A stretch of 64,000 bases of DNA from Candidatus Doudnabacteria bacterium (GTDB lineage Bacteria; Patescibacteriota; Doudnabacteria; UBA920; O2-02-FULL-48-8). Location of the stretch: positions 760,235 to 824,234 of the forward strand of contig JBBCGO010000001.1 in assembly GCA_037200925.1 (NCBI GenBank), written 5' to 3'. Position 1 is the stretch's first letter, and each line of letters starts with the position of its first letter. Of the stretch, positions 34,138-63,461 are shown in pieces. Under the pieces are notes generated by a model that did no database searches, had not been told where the DNA came from, and worked only from the letters and a program-made list of their open reading frames with translations. The translations under genes and the position numbers were made by a program.

Positions 34138-34348
34138 ACTTTTTTGGCGAAGACAACAAATTCGCCTCCATTTCCCAGCACGCAAGATAAGATGCCGATT
34201 GACGAAAGGCAATATTTTTGCTAAAATAATTAAGTATGCAAAGATATTCTGCTTCGTTAAAGTTGGTTGGTTTGTTGTTGGTCATTGCGGCAATAGGCAT
34301 CATTGTCTTTGCTGTAACGAGCAACACATTATAAATTTCATTTAATCT

Positions 34349-34463
34349 CCTCGTGTTTCAAGGCTTGTGGCCCGACCTGATCCCATCCCGAACTCAGAAG
34401 TCAAACGCAAGACCGCCGATGATACTTCAGTGTAAGACTGACGGGAAAGTAGGCAATGCGGGG
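34349..34463 (+). rRNA. rrf: 5S ribosomal RNA
   Basis: Conserved 'CCGAACTCAGAAGTCAAACG' and 'AGTAGG' blocks. Helix I 'CCTCGTG'/'TGCGGGG'. Followed by a T-run. Confidence 0.8.
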
Positions 34464-34471
34464 TTTTTAAT

Positions 34472-47470: not shown

Positions 47471-48055
47471 TTAGTATTGGCCTTGGACTAGAGGTTGGGT
47501 GCAGGCCTGGATCGTTCCATAAACTGGATTTCCGTAAGGAAGAGCTGTATTACTATTTTCTCTAGCTTTTTGGAGACGTTCTGGTGTGTTTCGCACAAGA
47601 CTAATCAAATAATTAGATTTTGAGTGATCTGTCGGACTATTACCAAAAGCTAGGTAATTATAACAATCCAAGAAAGAAAGAGAAGATACTTCCAGTTCCT
47701 TAAAGTGTTCGTGATCGCCAGTGGTGGTAATTATGTCTTGTTCTTTCTTCACCATAGCCCTTAGCACCCTTCTGATTTGGTCATTTTGAGGATACATATA
47801 GACTATTTCTCTTTGTAGATCGTCCCGAACTCCATCATGATCCGAGTCTATGCCAGCCAAAGTTGCTTTCCCAGCTTCTCCTGGATCTGGCGGAAGGACT
47901 ACCGGGACATCAGTAGCCGGGGGAGGAAGACCTCTAGTAGATAGCGGTTGCGGCAGGACCGGGTGATTAGCGCGGTATTGTCTTAAGCCAATTACTGCCA
48001 CTGTCACAGCAATTATTAGTATACCTGCTATCCAATATACTTTGTTCATATTCAT
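47471..48055 (-). CDS. Hypothetical membrane-anchored exported protein
   Basis: N-terminal TM 'VYWIAGILIIAVTVAVIGL'. Pro-rich linker. Confidence 0.4.
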   Translation of the reverse strand: MNMNKVYWIAGILIIAVTVAVIGLRQYRANHPVLPQPLSTRGLPPPATDVPVVLPPDPGEAGKATLAGIDSDHDGVRDDLQREIVYMYPQNDQIRRVLRAMVKKEQDIITTTGDHEHFKELEVSSLSFLDCYNYLAFGNSPTDHSKSNYLISLVRNTPERLQKARENSNTALPYGNPVYGTIQACTQPLVQGQY

Positions 48056-48202
48056 TATTTTAGGTCTTTCTTAGCTAAATTAGCTATTATTGATAATTAT
48101 ATCATCTTTTTTGCCTCCTATATATTGTCAAAGAACGGTATCATGGCTTTCTTGCTTTGAAGCCAAGCTACTTTAACTTGGAAGCATAAGTGATTTTACA
48201 AT

Positions 48203-48400
48203 TGTTGTCAATCATTAACAGCAATTTAAAACTGATTTCTTTTGAACCAAAAAAAGTTGGCGGAAGCCAACTTGTTTTAGCCAATGTTTAATTGCCTTTA
48301 TATTAAATTGTTGGTATATTATAACAGTAGAATCAGCGAATTTCTTTTTGACTAGGCCTACTGTCAGCATTCATAAACAAATATGGACTTATGGCCTAAA
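48203..48400 (+). repeat. About 185-bp direct repeat, copy A (duplicate of the TrmB-like gene promoter/5' end, with truncated start ATGGACTTATGGCCTAAATAG)
   Basis: About 90% identical to 50857-51058. Contains the imperfect palindrome 'TTGTTGTCAATCATTAACAGCAA' and a TATATTATAA -10-like element. Confidence 0.65.
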
Positions 48401-48404
48401 TAGT

Positions 48405-48438
48405 TGAAAAAAGCCGGACGATCGTCCGGCTTTTTTTA
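48405..48438. terminator. Bidirectional terminator (palindrome CCGGACGATCGTCCGG flanked by A-run/T-run), copy 1
   Basis: The same palindrome recurs at 51835-51850. Confidence 0.6.
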
Positions 48439-48464
48439 GTTTTAGAACAATAGTTACTATTACT

Positions 48465-49037
48465 TCATTCATCAAAAATTACTCCTTGTTTAATTAAGAA
48501 GCCTTTCTCGTCTGGAGTAATATTGAGCATCGCAGCGCTTTCGTGGGTTATCACACTTCCAATCATTTGTCGGTTATTGTAGAAAGTAGGATCTTCAAGA
48601 CCATAAAATTGTTTATCGCTATGCGGCCACCAAACTAAAAGAGTCTCATTTAGCTTTTGCTTCATTTTGTCTGACAAGTTAAAAAAGTAATGAACAAATA
48701 ATTTATTTTTATTCCAAACACCTTGTTCAATATCATTGTATTTCGTATTATCCCTTACTTCTTTTACGAAATCTTCTTTCAATTCACTAAATTGCTTCAA
48801 AAATCTCTGTTCCTTCTCAACGAAACCTGGTTCTACTGACGATTTACCCATTTCAAAATTAATAAAATTTAAGAAATTCAATTTTTTTGAAAAATATCGG
48901 GTAAATCTAACGGTATTGGAATTTGTGAAAAAGAAATTCCTGATTGCCGGTTCGGTCGCATCACTTCTGCTAAACCAAACCATATATTCTTTTGTCTTGT
49001 ATTCGTTTTCGTTCATACAGTTGCTTTTTTCTTCCAC
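48465..49037 (-). CDS. Hypothetical cytoplasmic protein (AT-rich gene)
   Basis: 190 aa, GC much lower than its neighbours. No recognisable motif. Confidence 0.4.
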   Translation of the reverse strand: MEEKSNCMNENEYKTKEYMVWFSRSDATEPAIRNFFFTNSNTVRFTRYFSKKLNFLNFINFEMGKSSVEPGFVEKEQRFLKQFSELKEDFVKEVRDNTKYNDIEQGVWNKNKLFVHYFFNLSDKMKQKLNETLLVWWPHSDKQFYGLEDPTFYNNRQMIGSVITHESAAMLNITPDEKGFLIKQGVIFDE

Positions 49038-49576
49038 CTCCTGTGAGTGAAATATGAACCAATAAGAGCAATCACCCCACCTAAAACAAAGTAAGATGGG
49101 CTCATTATCAAAATTACCAATAGGGGCAGTAATAAAACTAATAACTGTGCTTGTGCAGTTTTCAAAGAATATAGGTATGTTTGTTCAATTTGACCCTTAA
49201 GCATATTTGGATTTTTCTTTAATGCTTTGAAGATCACTATATTTCGTAGATGATTAGCATTGATATATACCATCGTAGTAAACAATAAACCTGGGATTAT
49301 GGCAAAACTTTGAGAGTTATAAATAATATTCTTTTGAGATAAATAATAAAATAAATAGATAAGCAAAGAGACTAAGACTACATACAATAAATGACGGAAG
49401 TTATATTTAAATTCCGCAACGTTTTTCTGAAACATTGGATTCATTTCGTAATTATCAGCTTTAATATGTTCAGAATAACCTTGTGTATATAATCTTGCCC
49501 CTTTAATGGTCAAATAAAAATCTAAGAACATTAGAGCGGCTGTTACGATGATTATAAAGAATACATTGTGGATCAT
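49013..49576 (-). CDS. Hypothetical integral membrane protein (AT-rich gene)
   Basis: 187 aa, 4-5 TM. Overlaps the downstream gene by 25 nt. Confidence 0.4.
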   Translation of the reverse strand: MIHNVFFIIIVTAALMFLDFYLTIKGARLYTQGYSEHIKADNYEMNPMFQKNVAEFKYNFRHLLYVVLVSLLIYLFYYLSQKNIIYNSQSFAIIPGLLFTTMVYINANHLRNIVIFKALKKNPNMLKGQIEQTYLYSLKTAQAQLLVLLLPLLVILIMSPSYFVLGGVIALIGSYFTHRRWKKKATV

Positions 49577-49686
49577 AATGGTTTTAACATAAAATATTCT
49601 AGAGTTAGTATACTTATATATTTATTTAAGATTACTAAAAGAAACTACTAGTGGCATCGTTCCTAGCAATTCCGCGGGTTTTTATA

Positions 49687-49914
49687 TTATTTTTCAGTTT
49701 TAAAAATGTCAGATACAAAGTAACAATGATAGCCCATTTTTTCAATAGCGACCAGGAGTTGTTCTTTAGTAGTACCAAACTGGGGATCATACGCAATTTC
49801 AATAAAGCCAGTATGAATTCCGACCCAAAGAACACCCGGTAAATCTATACCATTGTCAAAATCCTCATTGCTATCACTGCGAAGATTGTCTACTGTAAAA
49901 GTTAATATATTCAT
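49687..49914 (-). CDS. Hypothetical small protein
   Basis: 75 aa, no motif. Confidence 0.3.
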   Translation of the reverse strand: MNILTFTVDNLRSDSNEDFDNGIDLPGVLWVGIHTGFIEIAYDPQFGTTKEQLLVAIEKMGYHCYFVSDIFKTEK

Positions 49915-49983
49915 ATATTGATAAAATTTAATAAGTAGACCAGTGGTATAGAGATTTTTCTATACCACTGGAGATGACCGGGC

Positions 49984-50700
49984 TTACAAAGCGAGGAGCA
50001 AACCCCAGATTGCACCGGCGATTGTGCCTGCTGCTCCCGATAACAACCATGAATAAAGGTTGATTCCGACAGCAGAGAGCGACTGTTGCATAGCGTTCTG
50101 GATAACGATCTGCAGATCGTGGAAGTTCGGACAGGGTGGAGTGGCCAAGCAGAGCCACTTATTCCGAGAATCGTAGATCACAAATCGTTTGCAAACAACG
50201 CCACTGCCATTTCGTGTTGTAGCCGTCCCAATGTGCAGATGCGACCACGCTTTTGAATCCGGTGTGTTTACATTTGCCTTGATGGTGATATGGAAATGAT
50301 CCACTGGATTTGTCACACATGGGGCAAGCGGATGAGGCGGTTCACTGTCGTGAGAGCCGACGTAGATGTATGCGACACCAAGATTTACACCCACATCACT
50401 TGGGTTCAAACGGCCGTTAGTTCGTGACTGCAAACTGCCGTCAGTGAGGTTCAAGCCAATTTCGCCACCAGCGGCGACAATCGCTTCCAATCCTGCGGGG
50501 TCGATTTGCTGCCCGGCAGGATTCGAGATCGTCGTCGTACCATCCGGAGCTACAGTGACTTGGTATGCTCCTGATTGAGAGCTGGCGCCAGGAGGGGAGT
50601 CAGCCATGATTTGGCTTGGTTGAGTCGACAGCTTGTTGCATCCAACCATACCCAGCATAGAGAGAGCGACGAGTACGACGAGTGCTCTTCGTTGTCTCAT
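49984..50700 (-). CDS. Putative lipoprotein
   Basis: Signal peptide with lipobox 'LGMVGC'. 238 aa. Confidence 0.45.
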   Translation of the reverse strand: MRQRRALVVLVALSMLGMVGCNKLSTQPSQIMADSPPGASSQSGAYQVTVAPDGTTTISNPAGQQIDPAGLEAIVAAGGEIGLNLTDGSLQSRTNGRLNPSDVGVNLGVAYIYVGSHDSEPPHPLAPCVTNPVDHFHITIKANVNTPDSKAWSHLHIGTATTRNGSGVVCKRFVIYDSRNKWLCLATPPCPNFHDLQIVIQNAMQQSLSAVGINLYSWLLSGAAGTIAGAIWGLLLAL

Positions 50701-50856: not shown

Positions 50857-51058
50857 TTGTTGTCAATCATTAACAGCAATTTAAAACTGATTTCTTTTGA
50901 GCCAAAAAAAGTTGGCAGAAGCCAACCGGTTTTGACCAATGTTTAATTGCCTTTATATTAAATTGTTGGTATATTATAACAGTAGAAGTTGCGGGTTTTC
51001 TTTTTTACCCCTCTACTGTCAATATTCATAAACAAATATGGATTTATTGCTTAAACAA
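50857..51058 (+). repeat. About 185-bp direct repeat, copy B (native promoter/operator region and start of the TrmB-like gene)
   Basis: See copy A. Confidence 0.65.
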
Positions 51059-51823
51059 CTCATAGATTTCGGCCTTTCCGACAAAGAGGCGAAGATATAC
51101 CTCGCTTTGCTTAAACTGGAAGCGGCAACAGTGTTTGAGGTAGCGAAGCAATCGGGGATCAATCGAAGTTCGGCTTATGTTGTCTTGGAAGCCTTGAAGA
51201 AAAAAGGCCTGGTCGGGGTTTCAGACGATAAAAAGGTCCGCAGGTACGTCGCAGCTTCTCCGGAAACCTTGCTTTACGCGGCAAAAAGCACCGCCAAAAA
51301 ACAGGAAAATATAAAATCCGGAATAGAATCAATTCTTCCTGAACTGAAAGCCTTACACAAAGATACAAAACGAAAACCAAAAGTGAAAGTGTTCGAAGGT
51401 GAAAATGGCGCAAGAGAAGTATATTTGGATCCTTTTCGAACAAAGACTAAAGAATTTAGAACTTTTGCAAATCCAATAAATATATTCAAGCGCGTTCCTG
51501 ATCTGATGCAAGAGTATGATAAAGAAACAGAGGGAAGTGGTGGAATCAAAATGTATTTCATAAATCCTGCAACCAAAGAACTGTTGGAGTTATATAAACA
51601 TATATCACCTCCTAAACATGCTGAAATTTCTTTAATTCCGGAAGACAAATTCAAATTCTCGTCTGATATGGGGATATATGGCGACAAAGTCTCTCTTGTT
51701 TCTCCAAAAGATAATTTTGGGATTATCATTGAGAGTAAAGAGATTGCCGATATGCTTAAAAATAGTTTTGATCTGGCGTGGGAAGAAGCGAAAAGATTAA
51801 ATAAAAAAATAAAGAAGTCTTAG
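51038..51823 (+). CDS. TrmB-family transcriptional regulator
   Basis: N-terminal wHTH 'LSDKEAKIYLALLKLEAATVFEVAKQSGINRSSAYVVLEALKKKGLV'. Confidence 0.65.
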   Translation: MDLLLKQLIDFGLSDKEAKIYLALLKLEAATVFEVAKQSGINRSSAYVVLEALKKKGLVGVSDDKKVRRYVAASPETLLYAAKSTAKKQENIKSGIESILPELKALHKDTKRKPKVKVFEGENGAREVYLDPFRTKTKEFRTFANPINIFKRVPDLMQEYDKETEGSGGIKMYFINPATKELLELYKHISPPKHAEISLIPEDKFKFSSDMGIYGDKVSLVSPKDNFGIIIESKEIADMLKNSFDLAWEEAKRLNKKIKKS

Positions 51824-51826
51824 CAA

Positions 51827-51858
51827 TAAAAAAACCGGACGATCGTCCGGTTTTTTTA
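51827..51858. terminator. Bidirectional terminator (CCGGACGATCGTCCGG), copy 2
   Basis: A-run, palindrome, then T-run, between convergent genes. Confidence 0.6.
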
Positions 51859-51869: not shown

Positions 51870-52289
51870 TTATACTTTTTTTGCCGCTTTTTTCGCCAGT
51901 GTTTCCTTCAGTCTGGTCACAATTTCTTCAGTGGTATAGTAAGCTTTGACCATATAGTCATCTATATTCAATTCTTTGGCTTTTTGGATCTCTTCTTTGC
52001 CGAAGAGGTTGCTCAGAACGATGACTGAAGTTCCGGCAACAACCGGGTCGGGATCTTTCCGGATAACTTCCAGGATCTGGAACCCGTCCATCTCCGGCAG
52101 CATCAGGTCCAAAAGCACGATATCGGGTTTTTCCTTTTTCCAGTTTGCTATCGCAGATTTGCCGTCAGCGGCTTCGACAACGGCGAAACCCGAGGTGGAC
52201 AGCTTATGAACCATGATCTCGCGCATGGTCACGTCATCTTCGACAACCAGGACTTTAGTTTGTTTTTCGGCCATTTTGGCTATTCCCAA
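51870..52289 (-). CDS. Stand-alone response-regulator receiver domain (CheY-like)
   Basis: 'VLVVEDDVTMREIM...DIVLLDLMLPEMDGFQIL'. 139 aa, no output domain. Confidence 0.8.
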   Translation of the reverse strand: MGIAKMAEKQTKVLVVEDDVTMREIMVHKLSTSGFAVVEAADGKSAIANWKKEKPDIVLLDLMLPEMDGFQILEVIRKDPDPVVAGTSVIVLSNLFGKEEIQKAKELNIDDYMVKAYYTTEEIVTRLKETLAKKAAKKV

Positions 52290-52335
52290 GCTTTCTTGGA
52301 GGATAATTAATGATACCGATAATATAGCAAATATT

Positions 52336-52365
52336 GATTTTTATTGCAATATTGGTTAGAATAAA
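52336..52365 (+). promoter_or_regulatory. Putative promoter TTGATT-17-TAGAAT for the dehydrogenase-ligase-E1-nitroreductase operon
   Basis: Sits in the divergent intergenic region. Confidence 0.35.
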
Positions 52366-52409
52366 AAAGTGAAAGTTACAAAAAGACACCAAATACTCAA
52401 ACAAAAAAA

Positions 52410-53459
52410 ATGCCTGTAAAAGAGGCCAAAAAGCCCAAACTTATTGTTGATTTAAGTAAAAGTTCCAAGTTAAAAGGCTTTATTGTCATTTACAATGATA
52501 ATCTAGGCCCGGCACTGGGAGGAACCAGGATCGTTGACTACAAGTCAACCAAGGAAGCTTTGATTGATGCTAAGAGATTAGCAAGAGCTATGACATATAA
52601 ATCAGCTGTGGCCGGCCTGCCATTCGGCGGCGGCAAGGGTGTGATAGTCAAGCAACCGGGGATGAGTAAAAAAGAAACACTCAAAGAATACGCATTACAG
52701 GTTCATAAACTGAAAGGAAAATTTCATACTGGCGAAGATGTGGGTTTGAATGAAGCAGATGTCCAGTATATGCTGAAATTCAGCCCTTACTTCGTAGGGA
52801 AAACTGGCATGGCTGGAGATCCTTCTCAGTTTGCCGCGTTAAGCGCATTCAAAACCCTGAAGATTGCTTTAAAGTTTTTATACAAAAGCGATAAAATTGC
52901 CGGCCGGACATTTGCGGTCAAAGGAGTCGGCAATACCGGATCTTCTTTGACCAAGCTTTTATCAAAGGCCGGGGGCAAGGTTTTTGTTTTTGATCCGGAC
53001 ATAAAGAAAGTAAAAAAACTTGTCCGCTCAACAAAAAATGTTTTTGCAGCGAAAGACGATATAGCTGAATTAAAGGTCGATGTTTTTTGTCCTTGTGCTT
53101 TGGGCAATGATATTACAAAAAAGAACGTGAACAAGATCCAAGCCAAAATTATTTGCGGAACGGCGAATAATCAGCTGGAATCTCCTGAAATTGCCGATAT
53201 TTTGTTTAAGCGCGGAATTTTGAAAGTACCGGATTATATCGCCAATGCCGGAGGGGTCATTGATGTTGCCGATGAACTATTGCCGGGCGGGTATGACAAA
53301 AAACGGGTCTTGCGCAAGATCGACAGTATGAAGAAAATTTTGCTTTTTGTCTTAAATCAGTCAAAAAAGACCAAGAAAAGTCCCATCAGAATATCCGATG
53401 CCATGGCAGAAAGATCTTTTCTCGGGAAGAAAGAGAGCTACAATGTCTATAACAGGTGA
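52410..53459 (+). CDS. Glu/Leu/Phe/Val dehydrogenase-family amino-acid dehydrogenase
   Basis: 'GLPFGGGKGV' catalytic Lys motif and a Rossmann 'GVGNTGSSL'. Confidence 0.75.
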   Translation: MPVKEAKKPKLIVDLSKSSKLKGFIVIYNDNLGPALGGTRIVDYKSTKEALIDAKRLARAMTYKSAVAGLPFGGGKGVIVKQPGMSKKETLKEYALQVHKLKGKFHTGEDVGLNEADVQYMLKFSPYFVGKTGMAGDPSQFAALSAFKTLKIALKFLYKSDKIAGRTFAVKGVGNTGSSLTKLLSKAGGKVFVFDPDIKKVKKLVRSTKNVFAAKDDIAELKVDVFCPCALGNDITKKNVNKIQAKIICGTANNQLESPEIADILFKRGILKVPDYIANAGGVIDVADELLPGGYDKKRVLRKIDSMKKILLFVLNQSKKTKKSPIRISDAMAERSFLGKKESYNVYNR

Positions 53460-54930
53460 AAAAATATCAGCTCAGGATATTATAAAGTCATACAAAGTCA
53501 AACCGGAAGAACATTGGCTGTCTGTCCAGAGAAAAAAAACTTTGACGTTGTTCCGGCAAATGTCGAAACAAGTCCCGGCTTATGTGAAATTTTTGAAACA
53601 AAATGATTTTGATCCAAAAAAGGTCAAAAATTATGAAGATCTGAAAACTGTTCCTTTTATCGACAAAAAGAATTATTTTCAAAGATTTCCGATTTCCGAA
53701 TTTGTCTGGCAAAATGAGTTTGAACGGACACCTTTTGTCTTTACGTCAACATCCGGTTCAACCGGCATGCCGACGTATTTTTTAAGAGACGAAATATTGG
53801 ACTGGCAATTTTCCGTACTCGCCCAAATGTTCATGGATAAGGGAAGAAAAGGAACCACTCTCCTGATTGACTGCTTTGGTATGGGTGTGTGGATCGGCGG
53901 GCTGATAACCTACCAAGCTTTTCGGTTATGCGCGCTGAGGGGTTATCCTTTGTCCATCATAACCCCGGGGATAAACAAAAAAGAGATTTTTCACAGTCTG
54001 AAAAACGCCGCGCCTCATTTTGACAATGTTATTCTGGCCGGTTATCCGCCGTTTATTAAAGACGTGATTGATGAGGCGGAATCAGAAGGGATAAAATTTG
54101 GCAGCCATATGCGCTTGTTTTTTGCTGCCGAAGGGTTTACAGAAAATTTTCGCGATCATATTGTGAAGAATCTTCATGTGCGTAATCTTTATTTCGATAC
54201 CATGAATATTTACGGCACTGCGGAACATGGCGGAATGGCGTCCGAAACACCGGGCTCAATACTGATCCGGCGGTTAGCTATAAAAAACCCCGCGGTTTAC
54301 GAAGAAATTTTTCATAATGAAAAGTTGCCGACTCTGGCTCAATACAATCCGATGTTCATTAGTTTTGAGGCAGAACAGAACAAAATTTTGATCAGCGCTC
54401 ACAGTACAATGCCGATCTTCCGTTACAAAATCGGGGACAATGGCGGAATTTTGAGCTTAAGCCAGATCGAATCCGCATTTACCAAAAATAAGATCAATTT
54501 GCGTTCGGAAGCAAAAAGATTGAGGATCGATTTGCTGGATCTGCCTTTTGTATATATCTATGAAAGAAGCGATCTTTCAACGAAGCTTTACGGAGCAATT
54601 ATTTATCCTGAACCGATCAAGGAAGCGCTTTTGGATAAAAGGCTGCGAAGACATGTCAGCGGGAAATTCACTCTGATTACGAAATTCGACCCGAAACAGA
54701 ACGAATACCTGGAGATCAATATTGAGTTGCTGCCGAAATTCAAAAGCAGCGCGGCTCTTCACAAGCTTTGCCAGAAATTAATTGTTGAAAGCCTGCTCAA
54801 GAAGAACGCGGAGTATAAGAATAATTACAGCTCCATTCCGCATAAAGTCACGCCGAAAATAGTTTTTTGGACTTACGGCGATCCTATATATTTTAGCGGC
54901 CAAGGAAAGCAGAAATGGACAAAGAATTAG
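53443..54930 (+). CDS. Adenylate-forming enzyme of the PaaK / F390-synthetase / GH3-like superfamily
   Basis: 'TSTSGSTGMPTYF' P-loop-like adenylation motif and 'YGTAEHGG'. Overlaps the upstream gene by 17 nt. Confidence 0.55.
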   Translation: MSITGEKISAQDIIKSYKVKPEEHWLSVQRKKTLTLFRQMSKQVPAYVKFLKQNDFDPKKVKNYEDLKTVPFIDKKNYFQRFPISEFVWQNEFERTPFVFTSTSGSTGMPTYFLRDEILDWQFSVLAQMFMDKGRKGTTLLIDCFGMGVWIGGLITYQAFRLCALRGYPLSIITPGINKKEIFHSLKNAAPHFDNVILAGYPPFIKDVIDEAESEGIKFGSHMRLFFAAEGFTENFRDHIVKNLHVRNLYFDTMNIYGTAEHGGMASETPGSILIRRLAIKNPAVYEEIFHNEKLPTLAQYNPMFISFEAEQNKILISAHSTMPIFRYKIGDNGGILSLSQIESAFTKNKINLRSEAKRLRIDLLDLPFVYIYERSDLSTKLYGAIIYPEPIKEALLDKRLRRHVSGKFTLITKFDPKQNEYLEINIELLPKFKSSAALHKLCQKLIVESLLKKNAEYKNNYSSIPHKVTPKIVFWTYGDPIYFSGQGKQKWTKN

Positions 54931-56108
54931 AAAAATTGATCGGAGATAAAAACAATCCGGCTGAATCGAAGCCTAAGATTTTTAGTTTGGCTAAAGAGTC
55001 AGGCAGAGATGAATTGAAACAGCTTTTTGCGCAGAATAGGATACAAACCACGGTTGACGATTTCCGCCAGCAGCATCAGGAACTTTTCGCCATAAATAAT
55101 CCGGCGAAAGTTTACACTCCGGATTTTGAAAAGGAATTCGGCGAATACTACGACCAACTGAGTAAAAAACAGCCGATGGCCGAACAGGGCAACTGGGTTT
55201 ATTTTCCGTGGCTTGCGACGGTTGTGCATCTGCTAGAAGATGTTGATTTTCAGCGGGTCCGCACGGCAAGAAACAGAAACCTGATCAGTGAAGAGGAACA
55301 AAAAAAGTTTTACAATTCCACCATCGGGATCGGCGGATTGAGTGTGGGAAATAGCGTCATTTTGGCCATTGTCCTGCAGGGCGGGGCAAAACATTTACGG
55401 CTGGCGGACTTTGATAATTTGGCTTTGTCCAATCTTAACCGCATCCGCAGCGGGGTGGAAAGTTTAGGGCTTAGAAAAGTCGAGATGACGGCACGGCAAA
55501 TTTATGCCCTCAACCCATATGCTGAAGTCGAATTATTTGCGGAAGGGCTTACAACGGACAACCTCGATAAGTTTTTTGCAGGGCCGCCCAAACTCGATTT
55601 GGTCATCGATGAATTGGATAATATTGCGGTCAAATATTTGATCCGCGAGCAGGCAAAAAAGCACGGCGTACCGCTCGTAATGGGCGCCGATAACGGGGAC
55701 AATGCGGTCGTGGATGTGGAACGCTATGATCTTGATCCGAACACGCCGTTCTTCCACGGTAGACTGGGGGATGTGAATTATGAGCAGCTGACCAAGCTGG
55801 ACAAATTTGGCATCGGGAGAACCATCACCCAGCACATCGGTCCGGAGAATGTTACTGATAAAATGCAGAATTCTCTGATGGAAATGGGTAAAACGATCGT
55901 TTCTTGGCCGCAACTCGGCGGCGCGGCGCTCTTAAACGGTTCTGCCGTTGCATACAGCGTCAGAAGAATTCTGAACGGCCAGCCATTGGAACAAAACCGC
56001 GCGCTGATATCGCTGGATGAAAAATTGGATCCGGAATATAACACACCTCAAGCCCAAGAAAAACGAAACAAACTGACGGAAGACTTCAAAAAGATAATGA
56101 AGTTATAA
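54915..56108 (+). CDS. ThiF/MoeB/HesA-family E1-like protein (no Zn CxxC, long N-terminal extension)
   Basis: Rossmann 'IGIGGLSVGNSVILAIVLQGG' and 'ADFDNLALSNLNR'. Overlaps the upstream gene by 16 nt. Confidence 0.6.
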   Translation: MDKELEKLIGDKNNPAESKPKIFSLAKESGRDELKQLFAQNRIQTTVDDFRQQHQELFAINNPAKVYTPDFEKEFGEYYDQLSKKQPMAEQGNWVYFPWLATVVHLLEDVDFQRVRTARNRNLISEEEQKKFYNSTIGIGGLSVGNSVILAIVLQGGAKHLRLADFDNLALSNLNRIRSGVESLGLRKVEMTARQIYALNPYAEVELFAEGLTTDNLDKFFAGPPKLDLVIDELDNIAVKYLIREQAKKHGVPLVMGADNGDNAVVDVERYDLDPNTPFFHGRLGDVNYEQLTKLDKFGIGRTITQHIGPENVTDKMQNSLMEMGKTIVSWPQLGGAALLNGSAVAYSVRRILNGQPLEQNRALISLDEKLDPEYNTPQAQEKRNKLTEDFKKIMKL

Positions 56109-57164
56109 ATGGAAGAAACAATATTAAAAATTATTGAAGCAGCAATTCGAGCTCCTTCAGGCGAGAATTGCCAACCTTGGTTGATAAAGCTTTCTGAAAA
56201 TAAACTCAATCTTTATAACGATCCGTCCAAGGATACATCTGTTTACAACTATGGTCAGAAAGGATCAATGGTCGCTCAAGGTGCTTTTATAGAGAATCTG
56301 GCGATTGCATCCAAAGCCTTAGGATTAAGTGCGCAGCTAAATATGTTTCCCGATCCTTCAAACGAAGATTTGATTGCTACGGTTGGTTTTTCACAATCTT
56401 CTGCGGTTGATGATCCACTATATGGCGCTATTTTCAATCGATCGAGCAACAGAAAATCTTATAAAAAGATAAAATTTACGGAGGAACAGCGAGCCAGTAT
56501 TCTTATTTCAGGAATTGAAACAGGTAGCAAGGTTATATTGCTCGAAGATCCGCTTAAAATTAAAGATTTATCAAAACCCATAAGTCTGAACGAACAATTG
56601 ATTTTTGAGAACCAATTTTTGCATGATTTTTTTTATGCTCATATTCACTGGACTCAGGAAGAAGATGAAAAATATAAATTCGGCTTTTATATCAAGACCC
56701 TTGAACTGAATCTGCCACAATCAATCGCCATAAAGTTGTTGCGATCGTGGAAATGGACGAACCTATTAGATAAAATTGGCATCTCAAAACAGATCGCAAA
56801 AGACAACGCAAAAAATTATGAAACCGCTTCAGCACTAGGAATCATTGTCATTCCAACTAATTCCCGAAATGATTATGTTGTCGCTGGTCGCGCGATGGAA
56901 AGAGTGTGGCTTAAGGTAACATCTATGGGCCTGAGTTTGCAGCCGATGACAGGCATATTATTTTTTATGCAGAAGATATTATCCGGAAAACATGAGGAAT
57001 TCAGTACTGAGCAGGTTCAGTTGATTAAAGAGGGCTATCAAAAAATTTCTTCTGGGTTCGACGTTACAAACCAAACAATCGCCATGCTGTTTCGGATCGG
57101 CGATGGAGGCGAACCCTCCGCAAAATCTTTGCGCTATACCATTCCGGAAATAATGCAAAAATAA
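56109..57164 (+). CDS. Two-lobed nitroreductase-superfamily protein (SagB/Acg-like)
   Basis: 'AIRAPSGENCQPW' nitroreductase signature and a C-terminal 'AGRAMERVWLKVTSMGLSLQPM'. Starts 1 nt after the upstream stop. Confidence 0.6.
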   Translation: MEETILKIIEAAIRAPSGENCQPWLIKLSENKLNLYNDPSKDTSVYNYGQKGSMVAQGAFIENLAIASKALGLSAQLNMFPDPSNEDLIATVGFSQSSAVDDPLYGAIFNRSSNRKSYKKIKFTEEQRASILISGIETGSKVILLEDPLKIKDLSKPISLNEQLIFENQFLHDFFYAHIHWTQEEDEKYKFGFYIKTLELNLPQSIAIKLLRSWKWTNLLDKIGISKQIAKDNAKNYETASALGIIVIPTNSRNDYVVAGRAMERVWLKVTSMGLSLQPMTGILFFMQKILSGKHEEFSTEQVQLIKEGYQKISSGFDVTNQTIAMLFRIGDGGEPSAKSLRYTIPEIMQK

Positions 57165-57188
57165 TTTCATAAGAATAAATATCTAAAA

Positions 57189-58865
57189 ATGAATTTTTTG
57201 GCAAATTTAAGCATAATTCCCGTAGGAATCGCAGTATCTGCTATTGGAATTTTGGGTTTTGTCATTTTTTTCAATAACCGCAATAGCATTACCAATCGAA
57301 CTTTTCTTTGGTTTTCGTTGATTGCTATCTTATGGAACACGACAAGTTATTTATCTTACCAATTTACTTCAACGGTTCTGATTTTGTGGCTGCTGAGAAT
57401 TCAACTATTTTTTGCGGTTTGGTATTGTTTCTTTTTATTTAGATTTTTCTATGTTTTTCCCAATGAAAAAATAATTTTTTCAAAAATACATAAATTTATA
57501 ATTATTCCATTTGTAGCTTTGACTTCCTTAGTGACACTAAGTCCATTAGCAATAACGGAAGTGAACAGAGCTTCCAATCAAGGTAAATCCGGTGATGTGA
57601 TCGGATTAGGAATGATCTTATTTGGCGTTACAGTCGTTTCTTTGATCGCAAGCGGCATTGTGGTTTTTTTCGAAAAAAGGAAAAGGAAGAAAGGAAAAGA
57701 AAGAACCCCGTATAATTATATTTTGATCGGAACGATCATAACTTTTTCTTTATACATTGTGTTCAATTTCGTTTTCCCGGTTTTTTTACAAAACGTTCGG
57801 TATATTTCATATGGAGCGATTTTCAGTTTTCCTTTTATTGCCTTCACAAGTTATGCGATTATTCGGCATAGGTTCCTGGATGTAAAAGTCATTTCCACGG
57901 AAATTTTGGTTTTTGTTCTGTCTGCAGTGACTCTGATTGAAATTCTCACTTCCCAGAGTATTCCCGTGGTATTAGTAAGAATCTTGGAGTTTTTCCTGGT
58001 TTTGGTAATCGGAATCCTGCTTATCAGAAGTGTTGTGCGGGAAGTAAAACAGCGCGAACAGTTGGAAATTTTAGACAAACAACTCGAGGCTGCAAATCAA
58101 CAGCTTAAAATCCTGGACCAAGCCAGAGCCGAGTTTATCACCATCGCCAGCCATCAGCTGCGCACGCCGCCTGCGACCATCAAATGGTATCTGGCCGCGA
58201 TCCTCGACGGCGATTACGGCAAATTTGACGAATCGGTGAAACAAGAGCTGCGCAAAACGGCCTCCACTAATAATTCCATGATCGCCTTGATCGATGACCT
58301 TCTGAACGCTTCGCGCATTGAACGGGGTAAAATGGAATTTGTTTTCGTACCCACGAATCTGACTGAAATTACGCAGATCACGGTGGACCAGCTTTTGCCT
58401 CAGGCGGAAATGAGAAAGTTGAAATTAGTTTTTGAAAAGCCGAAAGTTGACTTGCCGATCATCTCGGCGGACAAGGAAAAACTGCGCCAGGTCATCAATA
58501 ACCTCATCGATAATGCCATCAAATATACAACAGAGGGGACGATCGAAGTAACTTTGTCTCAAACCAAAACGGATGTCATCCTGAAGGTCACGGATTCGGG
58601 CCGGGGAGTGGCGCCCGGACAGCTGGGCGAGATATTCAAGAAATACGAGCGGGGCGCGAGTCCGGCCAGAAATTCTTCCGGCTTGGGGCTGGGGCTATAC
58701 GTAGCCAAAGTCATTATTGATCAGCATAAGGGCAAAATTTGGGTTGAGTCAAAAGGAGAAGGAAAAGGATCAAGCTTTATTTTTTCCCTCCCGATCAAAG
58801 CGCAGCTGACGGACAGCGAATTTGATCTGGCCAAGGGACAGGCAACCCCGCCCGGTAAAACATGA
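57189..58865 (+). CDS. Membrane sensor histidine kinase
   Basis: 7-8 N-terminal TM segments, HisKA 'ITIASHQLRTPPATI' and HATPase 'GLGLGLYVAKVIIDQHKGKIWVES'. Confidence 0.85.
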   Translation: MNFLANLSIIPVGIAVSAIGILGFVIFFNNRNSITNRTFLWFSLIAILWNTTSYLSYQFTSTVLILWLLRIQLFFAVWYCFFLFRFFYVFPNEKIIFSKIHKFIIIPFVALTSLVTLSPLAITEVNRASNQGKSGDVIGLGMILFGVTVVSLIASGIVVFFEKRKRKKGKERTPYNYILIGTIITFSLYIVFNFVFPVFLQNVRYISYGAIFSFPFIAFTSYAIIRHRFLDVKVISTEILVFVLSAVTLIEILTSQSIPVVLVRILEFFLVLVIGILLIRSVVREVKQREQLEILDKQLEAANQQLKILDQARAEFITIASHQLRTPPATIKWYLAAILDGDYGKFDESVKQELRKTASTNNSMIALIDDLLNASRIERGKMEFVFVPTNLTEITQITVDQLLPQAEMRKLKLVFEKPKVDLPIISADKEKLRQVINNLIDNAIKYTTEGTIEVTLSQTKTDVILKVTDSGRGVAPGQLGEIFKKYERGASPARNSSGLGLGLYVAKVIIDQHKGKIWVESKGEGKGSSFIFSLPIKAQLTDSEFDLAKGQATPPGKT

Positions 58866-59731
58866 AAACTAAAACCAAAATCGCTGCTATCATTCTGCCG
58901 GCAGTTTTGCTGTTTTTTTTGCTGTTTCTGCTTGCAGGGCACAGTAATTGGTCACTGCTGAATCCGAAAGGACCAATTGCCCAACAGGAGCGCAATCTGA
59001 TGGTTGTTGGCATATCGCTCATGCTTATCGTAGTCGTGCCGGTGTTCATTTTGTTGTTTACTTTTGCCTTCAAATATCGGGAAGGGAACAAAGCCAAATA
59101 CGCCCCCAACCAGCGCCACAGCACGAAATTTCAATTATTGTTGTGGGCGATCCCAACGGTGATCATTCTGATTTTGGCAGTGATCAACTGGAAAAGCACG
59201 CACCAGTTAGACCCTTTCAAACCTCTTATCTCGAACGTAAAACCGATTACGATCCAGGTCGTATCTTTGCCGTGGAAATGGCTGTTTATTTATCCGGAGC
59301 AAAATATCGCAACGGTTAACTTTGTGGAGTTCCCACAGACCACGCCCGTTAATTTTCAATTGACTTCCGATGCCGCGATGAATTCATTCTGGATCCCACA
59401 GCTTGGCGGGCAGATGTACGCGATGGCCGGAATGAGCACGCAACTGCACCTTATGGCTTCCGCGCCCGGCTCTTTTGCCGGTTCGGCTGCGGAGATAAGC
59501 GGGCAAGGTTTCTCAGGGATGAAATTTACGGCCAAGGCAGTTACAAACTCTGACTTTGACAGTTGGGTTAAGTCAGTTCAGGCTAGGCGCACCCCATTGG
59601 GCCTTGCGGAATACAATAAATTAGCCGCACCGAGTTCAAACAACCCGCCGGCTTTTTATTCCTCCACGGACAAAAATTTATATAATAATATAATCATGAA
59701 ATACATGATGCCCACGCAGGGGATCCAATGA
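58862..59731 (+). CDS. cyoA: Cytochrome bo3-type quinol oxidase subunit II
   Basis: 2 TM plus a cupredoxin-like domain without CuA ligands: '[25 protein letters not shown]'. Confidence 0.8.
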
Positions 59732-61701
59732 GCATATTATTCGGAAAACTGACCCTTGCCGCTTTGCCGCACGAATGGTTCACCATCGCCGGAACTATTT
59801 TTATCACCATTATGGGCATAGCCGTTGTGGCTTTTTTAACGCACAAAAAGCTTTGGAAATGGCTTTGGAAGGAGTGGCTGACATCAACTGACCCGAAAAA
59901 GATCGGGATCATGTATATTATTGTCGCTTCGCTTATGCTGTTTCGCGGCGCCATTGATGCCGGAATGATATGGCTGCAGCAGTCGCTTTCTGTCGGGGTT
60001 TCTAACGGGTATATTTCTCCCAATCACTTTCAGCAGATCTTTACGGCACACGGCGATATTATGATCTTTTTCGTTACGATGGGATTTCTGGCGGGGCTTT
60101 GGAATCTGATCCTGCCGTTGCAGATCGGCAGCAGGGACGTGGCTTTTCCGTTTTTAAATACTTTAAGCTTATGGCTGTATATTGCGGGAGCGATCTTTGT
60201 TAACCTGTTTTTTGTCCTGGGAGGGGAGTTCGCCGCAACCGGCTGGCTCGCGCTGCCGCCATTATCCGAACTCCAGTTCAGCCCCGGGGTCGGGGTTGAC
60301 TATTGGATATGGAGCCTGCAGATATCGGGCTTGGGGACATTGCTTGGAGGCATTAATTTTCTCGTGACCATCCTCAAGATGCGAGCGCCCGGAATGACCT
60401 TGATGAAAATGCCGATGTTCGTGTGGACTTCCCTCTGCAGCATGGTGCTTGTTGTTTCTATTTTCCCGATCCTGGCCGCAACGATCGCGCTTCTGACGCT
60501 GGACCGATTCATGGGTATGCATTTTTTTACTACTTCGTTTGGCGGCAACCCGATGATGTACATTAGCCTTATCTGGTCATGGGGGCACCCGGAAGTATAT
60601 GTTCTTATCCTCCCTGCTTACGGCATCTATTCAGAAATAGTCGCAACGTTCAGCCAAAAACGCCTATCCGGATACGGTTCGGTAGTTGCCGGCTCGATCG
60701 GCATCACGCTTTTGGCCCTGCTGGTGTGGCTGCATCATTTCTTTACCATGGGCGCCGGCGCGGATGTCAACGCGTTCTTCGGCATCATGACCATGTTCAT
60801 CACGGTGCCCACGGCTGCGCTGGTTTTCAACTGGCTTGCCACTATGTACAAAGGCCGCATCCGATTTTTCACGCCTATGGATTGGTTTGTGGGATTCGTT
60901 TTCACATTCACTTTGGGCGGCATGGCCGGAGTGCTGATGGGGATCCCGGGAGTGGATTTTCAGGTGCATAACACTTTGTATCTAGTGGCGCATTTCCACA
61001 CTATGATCATTGGTGGTGCATTGTTCGGGATCTTTGCTGGCATTACTTATTGGTTTCCCAAGGCCACAGGGTTTACCCTGAATGAACGGCTCGGCAGATA
61101 TGCGTTTTGGTGCTGGATCATAGGATTTTTTGCGTCGTTTGTCCCGCTGTATATTTTAGGATTCATGGGCGCCACCAGAAGGCTCGACCACTATGAGGCA
61201 TCTACCGGCTGGCAGCCGTTGTTCATTGTTGCGGGAGTTGGCCTGATCATCATTGCGTGCGGCGCGCTCTTCCAAGTATTGCAAATAATCGTCAGCATCA
61301 AGCAGAGAAAACAGAACATTGATAAGACCGGAGATCCGTGGAACGGCAGAACGCTTGAGTGGGCGATTCCATCGCCGCCGCCTGTATATAATTTTGCGAT
61401 CATACCCAAAGTTACAGAGCGCGATCAGTTCTGGGCGGATAAAGCATCCAAGCAAACGGCCAAACAGGTTTACGAAGATATTCATATGCCCAAAAATACC
61501 GCGCTGGGAATATATACTTCCGGATTCATCTTCTTGTTCGGGTTTGCCATGGTCTGGCATATTGTTTGGCTGGCAATAGTTGGCCTTCTCGGTGCGATAA
61601 GCTGCGTCATCATCAGATCGTTCGATGAAGACACCGAATATGTCATCCCGGCTGACGAAGTTGCGAAAATGGAAGCCGAAAGGAAAAGCTTTTATGGATG
61701 A
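59728..61701 (+). CDS. cyoB: Cytochrome bo3 quinol oxidase subunit I (heme-copper oxidase)
   Basis: 657 aa. 'WSWGHPEVY', 'HHFFTMG', 'HFHTMIIGG'. Confidence 0.9.
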
Positions 61702-62266
61702 ACACGAAAAAAACGATAAACTTAAATTAGGATTCTGGGTCTATCTGATGACTGACCTGATAATGTTTGCGGTCCTGTTTGCGGCTTTCGCAGTGCTCCG
61801 GGGCAATACTTTTGGTGGGGCTTCGGCAAAAGAGCTTCTCAGCTTGCCGGGAGCTTTAGCAAATACCCTGATCCTGCTAACCAGCAGTTTTACCTGCGGA
61901 CTGGCGATCCTCGCAGTTGCTAAAAAAGACAAGATCGGCACACAGATCAGTTTAGGAGTGACGTTTGTACTCGGGCTCACATTCCTTATCCTGGAATTAA
62001 ATGAATTTTCAAAGCTGGTGGCCGATGGCAATAGCTGGCAGAGAAGCGCATTTCTATCTTCCTTTTTTACTCTAGTCGGCACGCACGGATTGCACATTAC
62101 CGTGGGGCTGTTATGCATCATTATTTCCATGATAATGATCTGGCGCCGCGGCCTTACTCCTTCCATTTCCGGCAAACTCGTGCGCCTAAGCCTGTTCTGG
62201 CATTTTTTGGATGTTGTCTGGATTTTTATTTTTACGATAGTTTATCTGATGGGGACTATAAAATGA
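61694..62266 (+). CDS. cyoC: Quinol oxidase subunit III
   Basis: Start at 'MDEHEKND'. 5 TM. The upstream extension of the listed ORF overlaps cyoB. Confidence 0.75.
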
Positions 62267-62604
62267 ACAACGCGACATTCAAGTCATATTTTCTGGGGTT
62301 CGTATTGTCAGCCGCCTTGACCCTGACGGCTTTTATCGCGGTCATCAGGCATTTACTTCCCGCATCGAATTTGATTTTTGTGATCATGGGACTTGCCCTG
62401 ATCCAGCTTTGGGTCCAATTGGTATTTTTCCTGCATCTGGACTACGAGAAGGGGCCGCGGTGGAATTTGGCGATCTTTATCTCCACGATCGGAATTATCC
62501 TTATCGTTGTCGTAGGAACGCTTTGGATAATGAAGAATCTTAATTACAATATGACGCCTGCGCAAGTCGACAAATATATCCAGGACCAGGCAGGCGGATT
62601 CTAG
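62263..62604 (+). CDS. cyoD: Quinol oxidase subunit IV
   Basis: Start at 'MNNATFKSY' (ATGA overlap with cyoC). 3 TM, about 113 aa. Confidence 0.7.
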   Translation: MNNATFKSYFLGFVLSAALTLTAFIAVIRHLLPASNLIFVIMGLALIQLWVQLVFFLHLDYEKGPRWNLAIFISTIGIILIVVVGTLWIMKNLNYNMTPAQVDKYIQDQAGGF

Positions 62605-62606
62605 AA

Positions 62607-63461
62607 ATGTTCAAAATTTATTATCAGCTCACCAAACCGGGAATTATCTATGGCAACGCGATCACGACTATCGCCGGATTTTTTTTGGCGTCAAGAGGAC
62701 ACATGAATTGGCGGCTGCTTTTGGCAACTTTGGTTGGATTATCTTTGGTCATTGCCTCGGCTTGCGTGTTCAACAATTTATACGATCGCGACATTGACAG
62801 AAAAATGGAACGCACCCGCAGCCGCGCGTTGGTCACAGGGTCGATATCAAAAACAAATGCCATAATATTTGGCATTGTTCTGATTTTTTTGGGAGCATTT
62901 GTTCTTCGCTTTCATACGAACACGCGGGCTTTGCTCGCGGCGCTGTTTGGATTTTTCGTCTATGTATTTGCATATACGCCGCTCAAGCACCGGTCAGTCC
63001 ATGCCACTCTTGTGGGCGCTATTGCCGGTGCGGTGCCGCCTGTGGTGGGATACACGGCGGTAACAAACCGATTTGATCTTGCGGCCTTGCTTTTGTTCTT
63101 GATCTTAGTTGCCTGGCAGATGCCGCATTTTTATGCGATAGCTATCCGCCGGCTTGATGAATACCGATCAGCCGGGATCCCGGTCCTGCCGGTGCAAAAG
63201 GGGATTGCGGTTACCAAGATAAACATCTTGCTTTATATCGTGGCCTTTATTATTGCGACCACATTACTAACCTTGTTCGGATTTGCAGGATATATTTATC
63301 TTGTTGTTATGCTTTTATTTGGGCTGATATGGCTGACAGTTTGTATTCAAGGTTTTAGGGCCAACAACAATGATTCTGTCTGGGCCCGTAATATGTTTAA
63401 ATTTTCGCTAGTAGTACTTTTAGTATTTAGTGTTGCCATATCAATTAATGCTATAATATAA
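62607..63461 (+). CDS. cyoE: Protoheme IX farnesyltransferase (heme O synthase), UbiA family
   Basis: 'NNLYDRDIDRKMERTRSR' UbiA motif. 8-9 TM. Confidence 0.85.
   Translation: MFKIYYQLTKPGIIYGNAITTIAGFFLASRGHMNWRLLLATLVGLSLVIASACVFNNLYDRDIDRKMERTRSRALVTGSISKTNAIIFGIVLIFLGAFVLRFHTNTRALLAALFGFFVYVFAYTPLKHRSVHATLVGAIAGAVPPVVGYTAVTNRFDLAALLLFLILVAWQMPHFYAIAIRRLDEYRSAGIPVLPVQKGIAVTKINILLYIVAFIIATTLLTLFGFAGYIYLVVMLLFGLIWLTVCIQGFRANNNDSVWARNMFKFSLVVLLVFSVAISINAII

Follow-up and report, generated by a model that had tools for sequence, protein, structure and literature searches.

We analysed a 64,000-nt stretch of contig JBBCGO010000001.1 from Candidatus Doudnabacteria bacterium (the window, to which all coordinates refer) and found in it a block of about 6.5 kb that is probably an operon for making an oxazolone-type (azlactone) small molecule from amino acids. 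Judging from sequence comparisons, we put the probability of this reading at about 0.6. The block would be a variant, carried by Patescibacteria of the candidate phyla radiation (CPR), of the oxazolone systems TrzAS, TyzACB and OxzAB. It is composed of genes for an amino-acid dehydrogenase (DH), a PaaK-like ligase, a ThiF-like protein, a nitroreductase-like protein (NTR) and a sensor histidine kinase (HK):

52410-53459, + strand: Leu/Phe/Trp-type amino-acid dehydrogenase (PF02812 and PF00208)
53443-54930, + strand: divergent PaaK-family adenylate-forming ligase (PaaK fold in the AlphaFold2 (AF2) model, ANL motifs)
54915-56108, + strand: ThiF-like protein, putative ATP-dependent cyclase (PF00899; N-terminal half of NF005901)
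56109-57164, + strand: nitroreductase-like protein, putative flavin-dependent oxidase (FDO) (C-terminal half of NF005901; Acg-type fold)
57189-58865, + strand: sensor histidine kinase with a membrane-embedded seven-transmembrane (7TM) input domain (HisKA_7TM at residues 16-232, HisKA, HATPase_c)

A sequence-only reading of this DNA had placed the open reading frames (ORFs) at these positions and described the first four genes as coupled, which was confirmed: the gaps from DH through ligase, ThiF and NTR to HK are -17, -16, 0 and +24 nt. No strong terminator was found between 52410 and 58865, and the ligase start at 53443 is favoured over an upstream ATG at 53398 by the N-termini and lengths of 45 homologues. 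Profile searches (Pfam and NCBIfam) and structure predictions, kinds of check that the same reading had named, upheld its family assignments.

The ThiF-like and NTR genes correspond, by profile comparison, to the two halves of an enzyme of the Rv1355c/TrzS family, because their joined match is collinear, full-length and above the curated cutoff. Against the NCBIfam model NF005901 ('Rv1355c family protein', profile length 722, curated equivalog cutoff 476 bits), the ThiF protein scored 352 bits over profile positions 7-353 and the NTR 201 bits over positions 375-717; the NTR also scored 143 bits against the Acg family. Joined in silico, the two gave a single continuous match of 561 bits, in which residues 14-745 covered profile positions 7-717, and the Rv1355c-like character proposed from the letters alone was thereby borne out. 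In the window they are separate abutting genes (56108/56109) and not one polypeptide. In a search of 1.84 billion representatives, the ThiF protein of CPR was embedded among relatives of both kinds, split (~360-400 aa) and fused (~720-790 aa).

Rv1355c has been characterised since December 2025 as TrzS, an ATP-dependent cyclase and flavin oxidase that converts N-acyl amino acids to oxazolones: N-acyl-tryptophan undergoes ATP-dependent cyclisation and then O2-dependent desaturation to N-acyl tryptazolone, the substrate being supplied by the acyl-CoA N-acyltransferase TrzA (Rv1356c) (Kleetz et al., PMC12856293). A split version is found in TyzB (ThiF) and TyzC (FDO), which act together with the acyltransferase TyzA, again by a cyclisation that needs ATP and a desaturation that needs O2 (Grigg et al. 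2023, PMC10404671), and the first oxazolone synthetase was OxzAB of Pseudoalteromonas rubra (De Rond et al., bioRxiv 10.1101/2020.06.11.147165). The defining partner in all three systems is an adjacent N-acyltransferase (PMC12856293, PMC10404671, bioRxiv 10.1101/2020.06.11.147165). Oxazolones do not survive acid or methanol (PMC12856293).

The residues G141-x-S143-x-G145, D165, D167, N173, N175, R176, K188, E233 and D235 of the ThiF protein are invariant; the nucleotide loop, the D-x-D...N-x-N-R motif and D235 are so in 15 CPR and 27 fused homologues. The adenylation Asp is D235 within VIDELDN, which aligns to VIDAIDS of TcdA, and from this motif it would be equivalent to D217, the adenylation Asp of Mycobacterium smegmatis TrzS (PMC12856293). 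By profile, the closest solved relative of the ThiF protein is TcdA, an ATP-dependent cyclodehydratase, in a match that spans only residues ~136-262, the Rossmann core; the N- and C-terminal extensions match Rv1355c.

The AF2 model of the NTR (predicted local distance difference test score, pLDDT, 95.5) has a single-chain, two-lobed Acg-type fold. Its sole strong Foldseek match was the M. smegmatis Acg homologue 2YMV (E 5e-17, template-modelling (TM) score 0.72/0.78; the next match at ~1e-5), and the TrzS oxidase domain, whose flavin mononucleotide (FMN) site in M. smegmatis includes R540 and Q651, is likewise reported to have 2YMV as its nearest structure (PMC12856293). Conserved in the NTR are A15-P-S17, N20, Q22, P23, W24, G58, R111, R115, G192, G260, R329 and R342, and R111, R115, R329, R342 and Q22 are kept across the fused homologues. 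With more confidence than in the model as a whole, we take the ThiF protein and the NTR to be probably a cyclase/desaturase whose substrate is small and resembles an acyl amino acid. A small N-acyl amino acid is the most likely candidate, a peptide a less likely one.

The module is no oddity of this genome, being strongly conserved across the sampled Patescibacteria. There are 3064 relatives of the ThiF protein at E < 1e-10, the best 120 of which are all from Patescibacteria with 61-79% identity, and 1612 relatives of the ligase; across lineages the ThiF protein is ~62% identical. For gene order we compared 80 reference-genome loci, all of Patescibacteria, with counts that allow for contig ends and hence have varying denominators. 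The names among them are Doudna-, Parcu-/Pacei-, Kaiser-, Lipton-, Uhr-, Nomura-, Adler- and Taylorbacteria, and many further locus records are labelled Saccharibacteria, apparently a generic submission label. Together with Vogel- and Magasanikbacteria, whose homologues were present in the protein searches, at least ten named candidate CPR lineages bear the module.

In 60 of 64 loci, ThiF has a PaaK-like gene no more than 1.7 kb upstream. The NTR gene directly follows ThiF in 37 of 65 loci and stands anywhere in the locus in 51 of 65, and an orthologous 7TM-HK gene lies within 6 kb downstream of ThiF in 36 of 47. The median intergenic gaps are 12, 4 and 3 nt, the last of them between NTR and HK. 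This linkage is far beyond chance, and from these counts and short gaps the core of the module is ligase, ThiF, FDO and 7TM-HK, in that order. The single functional unit supposed in the sequence-only reading was thus supported, its own neighbourhood check showing synteny in dozens of genomes. Divergence among the NTR partners is very high, with ~33% mean identity and a subset at 21-27%.

Natural fusions join further parts. Protein P0335 (1242 aa, Patescibacteria) contains a DH (39% identity to the window DH, E 3e-70), a ligase (35%, E 4e-87) and a ThiF domain in the gene order of the window, and P0277 (924 aa) unites ThiF with an aromatic lyase. Locus L081 reads response regulator, DH, ligase, fused ThiF-FDO, HK and response regulator; L082 reads lyase, ligase, fused ThiF-FDO, 7TM-HK and TrmB; and L083 reads ThiF-lyase, ligase, FDO and 7TM-HK. 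Because such fusions (DH-ligase-ThiF and ThiF-lyase) join them, we regard the parts as belonging to one pathway. Some genomes have two modules, one lyase-linked and one dehydrogenase-type, as in L052 (on one contig) and in L057 and L060 (one metagenome-assembled genome (MAG), CAYIBQ01); paralogous ligase-ThiF modules of two types therefore imply two different products per organism.

The ligase has no Pfam match at E <= 0.01 and scores only 53.5 bits against the PaaK model TIGR02155, with a cutoff of 646 bits. It has, in its model, a PaaK-type two-domain fold with the ANL core motifs including the C-terminal catalytic Lys: T103-S-G-S-T-G108, Y257-G-x-A260, G331-D332, R375-x-D377 and K489 are invariant in 46 homologues. 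The AF2 model (pLDDT 88.8) matched PaaK1 best in Foldseek (2y27, E 1.8e-23, TM 0.70/0.80), followed by AjiA1, NatL2 and ClxA (TM ~0.60/0.68, E ~1e-18, sequence identity ~15%). The enzyme had been called PaaK/GH3-like; the PaaK-type fold stood, and the GH3 identity was rejected, as there is no GH3 Pfam match and JAR1 (4epl) reached only TM 0.45/0.41 with a root-mean-square deviation of 14 Å. NatL2 and ClxA are PaaK-family ligases of benzoxazole pathways that pass an acyl-adenylate to a nucleophile without CoA, NatL2 forming an ester and ClxA an amide (PMC7204872, PMC12519233).

The DH carries both ELFV domains (PF02812, 78 bits; PF00208, 75 bits). Its best PDB matches, leucine dehydrogenase (LeuDH) 6acf with 225 bits and tryptophan dehydrogenase (TrpDH) 5b37 with 212 bits, place it in the Leu/Phe/Trp branch; its best NCBIfam model, the TrpDH ScyB, gave 257 bits, below the 600-bit cutoff, and no equivalog cutoff was passed. 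The pocket residues point in two directions, the Gly of 'TGEDVG' being phenylalanine-dehydrogenase-like and the Val of 'GGVIDV' LeuDH-like, and we based no substrate assignment on them.

The DH is not a constant member of the module. In the slot 5' of the ligase, assessed in 71 loci, we found a DH in 21, an aromatic ammonia-lyase in 12 (PF00221, 536 bits; best NCBIfam model the FlxA tyrosine ammonia-lyase, 620 bits), a HisC-like class I/II aminotransferase in five and an IlvE-type class IV aminotransferase in three. The trait common to these enzymes is that all strip the alpha-amino group from an amino acid. Aminotransferases paired with adenylating enzymes use arylpyruvates (TdiD/TdiA type), and pairs of a tyrosine ammonia-lyase with a ligase use coumarate, as in flexirubin synthesis (FlxA/FlxY) and for photoactive yellow protein.

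The ligases form two deep clades, with ~51% identity within and ~31% between them. The 12 lyase-linked ligases make up one clade by themselves, and the remaining 59 ligases lie outside it. Divided by the same split, ThiF has identities of 0.63/0.63 within and 0.62 between, and FDO and HK are likewise undivided, so the ligase split reflects function and not lineage. The ligase subtype follows the kind of deaminating enzyme just upstream, and we infer that the ligase acts on the product of that enzyme; the earlier suggestion that ligase and dehydrogenase feed the pathway is in our opinion right. The lyase-linked clade was also tried as FlxY and rejected, its 34-40 bits against a 520-bit cutoff not being diagnostic (24-40 bits for the ligases overall).

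No GNAT, FeeM or LuxI-type family was found in the window block, and none recurs in or next to the module in the 80 loci. Such genes were recovered in positive controls outside CPR: the fused gene of L086 (Saccharothrix) overlaps at its start with an Acetyltransf_1 gene, and two PF13444/TIGR03694 acyltransferase genes occur in L087 (Methylocaldum-type). A PaaK-like gene was present in none of the seven non-CPR contexts of the family. Because no acyltransferase recurs in the 80 loci while the canonical clusters keep one adjacent, we propose that the PaaK-type ligase replaces the canonical acyl-CoA N-acyltransferase step.

One additional family, cluster 8 (~305 aa; L005:13143-14054, also L006, L010, L022, L023, L067 and others), lies between FDO and HK in 10-11 CPR loci and is absent from the window. 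It had no Pfam, NCBIfam or PDB match; its 'DLGAGG' motif hints at a putative S-adenosylmethionine-dependent methyltransferase. The idea that it is a hidden acyltransferase gained no support: BLAST showed no relation to the canonical acyltransferases or to a 228-aa partner protein found outside CPR, and it is present in only those 10-11 loci.

The proposed pathway would proceed as follows. The Leu/Phe/Trp-type DH would oxidatively deaminate a hydrophobic or aromatic L-amino acid to the 2-oxo acid; in other lineages a HisC-like aminotransferase would have the same role, or a FlxA-like ammonia-lyase would give an aryl-acrylic acid. The PaaK-like ligase would then adenylate this acid and acylate a second amino acid at its alpha-amino group, in a step that yields an N-acyl amino acid and takes the place of the acyl-CoA-dependent TrzA, TyzA or OxzA. 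The ThiF-like enzyme would adenylate the free carboxylate, upon which the amide oxygen would close the 5(4H)-oxazolone ring, and the FMN oxidase would use O2 to desaturate C-alpha to C-beta, yielding a conjugated 4-alkylidene or 4-arylidene oxazolone. The 7TM kinase and the receiver would control the operon or respond to the product. To the second step, direct amide formation by the ligase from the deaminated acid, we give slightly less than even odds.

Several points weigh against this pathway. The CPR members are known from genes and models alone, and they are only ~26-41% identical to the fused relatives elsewhere; because of this low identity, the equivalog label may not extend to the substrate or product. 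The conserved Arg and Gln residues of the NTR are candidates for the counterparts of R540 and Q651 of TrzS, at the level of motif conservation only. We found no NTR in the fetched locus in 14 of 65 cases and no recognisable deaminating enzyme nearby in 30 of 71. The direction of the DH or aminotransferase reaction is ambiguous, and therefore these enzymes could supply the acceptor amino acid instead. Neither 2-oxoacyl nor cinnamoyl groups are known from natural oxazolones. CoA ligation is the typical activity of PaaK enzymes, and CoA independence is not readable from a sequence or model. The CoA exclusion of NatL2 depends on a C-terminal extension and a Zn site (PMC7204872), and the window ligase has no NatL2-like extension, because K489 sits only six residues from its end. 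Finally, the 7TM sensor of the HK shows no co-variation with the ligase clade (0.338 among the lyase-linked loci, 0.341 between) and so gives no support for product sensing.

Among the alternatives, two keep the small-molecule logic, and we consider each of them unlikely, to about the same degree. The oxazolone could be the end product but the ligase an ordinary acyl-CoA ligase, making 2-oxoacyl-, arylacetyl- or cinnamoyl-CoA for an unlinked N-acyltransferase that forms the N-acyl amino acid. The nearest families of the ligase by sequence and fold are indeed true CoA ligases (PaaK1/2, BT_0428, FlxY), and all characterised oxazolone pathways use acyl-CoA and an acyltransferase; however, the canonical clusters keep that acyltransferase adjacent and the CPR loci, which were searched as loci and not as whole genomes, show none recurring, and the P0335 fusion sets the ligase product beside the cyclase. 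Alternatively, adenylation, cyclisation and flavin oxidation could be kept on the way to a different heterocycle or activated product of an acid and amino-acid conjugate, for example from an ester or other adduct made by the ligase, or with the DH acting on a ligated intermediate. The low identity to characterised enzymes, the very divergent NTR partners and the additional cluster 8 protein speak for this, as does the precedent of NatL2, which was predicted to form an amide and proved to form an ester (PMC7204872). The full-length, collinear match to the Rv1355c family above its cutoff and the retained catalytic motifs speak for the oxazolone.

Far less probable than either is the modification of a peptide or protein, whether by azole formation as in the thiazole/oxazole-modified microcins (TOMMs) or by E1-like activation of a carrier C-terminus. 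ThiF/E1-like proteins and McbC/SagB-like nitroreductases do co-occur in TOMM clusters. But we found no YcaO among the block genes or recurring in the loci, no recurrent small ORF and no GG-terminal protein near the module in the 80 loci, and no credible precursor ORF in 52290-52409, where ORFs of at least 20 aa in 52200-52450 were only unconserved frames of 23-49 aa; the absence of YcaO, precursor and sulfur carrier noted in the sequence-only reading was upheld. The check for an E1 catalytic Cys or Zn motif which it had named gave no invariant Cys and no CxxC motif in the CPR and fused ThiF alignments, the NTR is of the Acg/FDO type, and the pair matches the small-molecule enzyme TrzS end to end. 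Slightly less probable still is a housekeeping role, such as tRNA ct6A formation (TcdA), sulfur transfer for molybdenum cofactor or thiamine (MoeB/ThiF), or the fermentation of amino acids by way of a PaaK-type enzyme; the clustering would then be incidental. TcdA is the closest solved relative, some source annotations label the homologues TcdA or MoeB, and the ThiF conservation of ~62% is unusual for secondary metabolism. Against this, the TcdA, MoeB and ThiF models reached 39-67 bits with cutoffs of 152-450 bits and matched the Rossmann core only, and fusions and co-variation link the ThiF protein to the ligase and the deaminating enzymes. TcdA (NF011696) was rejected at 38.8 bits against its 304-bit cutoff, and a MoeB/ThiF sulfur-carrier E1 at 52-67 bits, with no invariant Cys and no GG-terminal partner. 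Neither the MoeB nor the NAD(P)H nitroreductase families were matched in the housekeeping check proposed beforehand.

That the HK keeps its place in 36 of the 47 loci, often with just 3 nt between it and the FDO gene, speaks for a functional tie to the module. An HK also stands beside the fused ThiF-FDO forms of L081 and L082 and in L083. The link suggests a possible role in regulation or signalling. Upstream of the operon there are two further regulators and a leader of 120 nt:

51038-51823, + strand: TrmB-family transcriptional regulator (PF01978, 66 bits), peripheral and only occasionally linked
51870-52289, - strand: stand-alone CheY-like response-regulator receiver with no output domain (PF00072, 83 bits), divergent from the operon
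52334-52362, + strand: promoter-like site in the leader (TTGATT-17-TAGAAT, 9/12 matches; consensus match only)

A strong, bidirectional terminator (51827-51858) lies between the TrmB and receiver genes. With regard to the flanking regulators of the sequence-only reading, the downstream HK and the divergent receiver stood, but the TrmB gene is not divergent: it runs in the same direction as the operon and converges on the receiver gene. In 23 loci the module has receiver genes at its flanks, directly adjacent in 11, and in L001, L003, L039 and L081 they take the divergent position seen in the window. TrmB homologues stand beside the module in 4-6 of the 80 loci and in L082.

Signalling proteins were also seen near the family outside CPR. 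In L084 (Algoriphagus) and L090 the fused gene is accompanied by a conserved, unannotated 228/229-aa protein (L084:8265-8951 and L090:7360-8049, 44% identical to each other), behind which comes a 7TMR-DISM kinase, and by a hybrid kinase. The fused gene of L089 overlaps at its start with a hybrid-kinase gene, and L088:5001-7463 (Gordonia polyisoprenivorans MAG; P0464, also P0462) encodes a GGDEF-ThiF fusion of 820 aa, an echo of the cyclic di-GMP (c-di-GMP) genes that adjoin trzAS in Mycobacterium tuberculosis (PMC12856293). A 712/847-aa protein is encoded directly upstream of the Rv1355c-family gene in L085 (3454-5997) and L089 (115-2253), with 34% identity (E 1e-95). These 228/229-aa and 712/847-aa partners may be alternative 'first enzymes' of oxazolone-type pathways. 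The 847-aa upstream protein of Polyangium was tried as a ligase homologue and rejected (E 0.42).

We might speculate, at a probability clearly below that of the biosynthetic reading and with considerable doubt, that the module is a self-contained chemical signalling circuit widespread in CPR. The oxazolone would be a signal that diffuses or dissolves in membranes, exchanged among CPR cells or by the episymbiont with its host, and the 7TM-HK would read it. Lineage 'dialects' would then arise from the swapped deaminating enzyme and ligase clade, and the oxazolone would be derived from amino acids without acyl-CoA or fatty-acid metabolism. If true, this would be the first physiological role for bacterial oxazolones in general; kinases of the 7TMR-DISM and hybrid types and GGDEF domains also accompany related loci outside CPR. 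The link of ThiF-FDO to signalling proteins inside and outside CPR makes the hypothesis that oxazolones are signals open to direct testing.

ABC exporter genes (ABC_membrane and ABC_tran, ~590-610 aa) were found beside the module in L013, L028, L044, L065 and L069, and the non-CPR locus L087 is flanked by MacB-type exporters; these are possible genes for product export.

A quinol-oxidase operon (58862-63461; COX2 with COX_ARM, COX1, COX3 and a UbiA-type haem O synthase) follows the HK gene, with a gap to cyoA of -4 nt, so that it begins 4 nt within the HK stop. The order HK-CyoA-CyoB was found elsewhere only in the closest relative, L001. Because characterised homologues of the pathway oxidase need O2, the juxtaposition of a quinol oxidase with this oxidase of O2-dependent type may perhaps be non-accidental.

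Other features of the window were observed apart from the module. A 2627-aa ORF (15474-23357) combines a pilin-type methylation motif at its N-terminus with five Gly_rich_2 repeats (PF21722, 295 bits), and its segment has 55-60% GC against ~45% in the rest of the window; by its sequence it looks like a giant pilin-like surface protein. The stretch 47471-50700 is low in GC (31.8% at 48-50 kb), and several of its encoded proteins had no Pfam match (47471-48055, 48465-49037, 49013-49576, and a 238-aa lipoprotein-like ORF at 49984-50700). In the 23S rRNA region (29955-34464), the 23S gene has 3375 nt against a 2925-nt model, with ~450 nt of insertions, and no 16S rRNA gene was found in the window. 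Two tRNAs are located between 23S and 5S; one of them (33944-34043, 100 nt) was seen by Rfam and missed by ARAGORN, and may contain an intron. The 23S insertions and the tRNAs between 23S and 5S fit a CPR organism.

Full-text literature searches turned up no account of the module and no report of a PaaK-type enzyme partnering oxazolone synthases or of oxazolone genes from CPR. The ThiF-FDO chemistry is already known; new are the ligase/deaminase front end, the spread over many CPR lineages and the conserved kinase. CPR genomes are ~1 Mb in size with almost no biosynthesis, and a 6.5-kb pathway is kept in at least ten lineages. Because it is kept, with its ThiF protein so similar across lineages, despite the tiny genomes, the module must matter to the CPR lifestyle. 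The predicted acyl-CoA-free route would suit organisms without lipid metabolism, and the new clade of PaaK-type ligases may include amide-bond-forming biocatalysts; these ligases and the dedicated 7TM sensor kinase are partners open to experiment. Several thousand database proteins now called 'hypothetical', 'phenylacetate-CoA ligase', 'MoeB/ThiF' or 'TcdA' could be re-annotated. The module also ties CPR to the very recently defined oxazolone chemistry.

Compared with known systems, the block shares with the TOMM enzymes (microcin B17-type McbB/C/D) an E1-like protein and a nitroreductase-superfamily FMN dehydrogenase that together give (in the block, presumably) an oxidised five-membered heterocycle, but it has no YcaO or precursor peptide, its ThiF ATP site is intact, and its oxidase is of the Acg/FDO type and not the SagB type. 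The TOMM analogy drawn in the sequence-only reading is unnecessary, because Rv1355c and the split TyzB/TyzC are now characterised and the pair matches these. PaaK (2Y27, 2Y4N) is the best fold match of the ligase, with the ANL motifs kept, although the window ligase is ~60 residues longer; flexirubin FlxA/FlxY (tyrosine ammonia-lyase and ligase) shows the same lyase-then-ligase pairing as the lyase-type CPR loci. Unlike PaaK and FlxY, the window ligase stands outside phenylacetate catabolic or polyene pigment clusters. NatL2, AjiA1 and ClxA resemble it in fold and show that PaaK-type enzymes can join an acyl-adenylate to an amine or hydroxyl with no CoA, ahead of heterocyclisation; their cyclase partner is an amidohydrolase and not ThiF/FDO, and the window ligase has no evident Zn site.

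OxzAB uses ThiF and nitroreductase chemistry, as proposed for the block, on an N-acyl aromatic amino acid, with a supplier enzyme before the cyclase/oxidase. It differs in that OxzB is fused and of another subcluster (against NF011424, the second ThiF-NTR fusion model, the window ThiF reached only 64 bits), that its supplier OxzA is an N-acyltransferase, and that it was reported from proteobacteria. TyzACB of M. tuberculosis (Rv2336-2338c, forming N-acyl tyrazolone) has the split architecture of the block: TyzB is a stand-alone ThiF cyclase, and its neighbour TyzC is an independent single-chain FDO that has a lid. TyzA, however, is a FeeM/AHL-synthase-like acyltransferase that uses lauroyl-CoA, TyzB (318 aa) is without the ~110-residue N-terminal extension common to the window ThiF and Rv1355c, and no ligase, dehydrogenase or kinase is reported for the Tyz cluster. 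TrzAS (Rv1356c-Rv1355c; M. tuberculosis and M. smegmatis) shares the ThiF adenylation motif and the same closest oxidase structure, 2YMV, and both have signalling neighbours, c-di-GMP genes in M. tuberculosis and a histidine kinase in the window. The window enzyme differs in being split in two, and a PaaK-type ligase and a DH stand upstream in place of a TrzA-type N-acyltransferase; therefore the acyl group is probably an amino-acid-derived 2-oxo or aryl acid and not a short fatty acyl chain.

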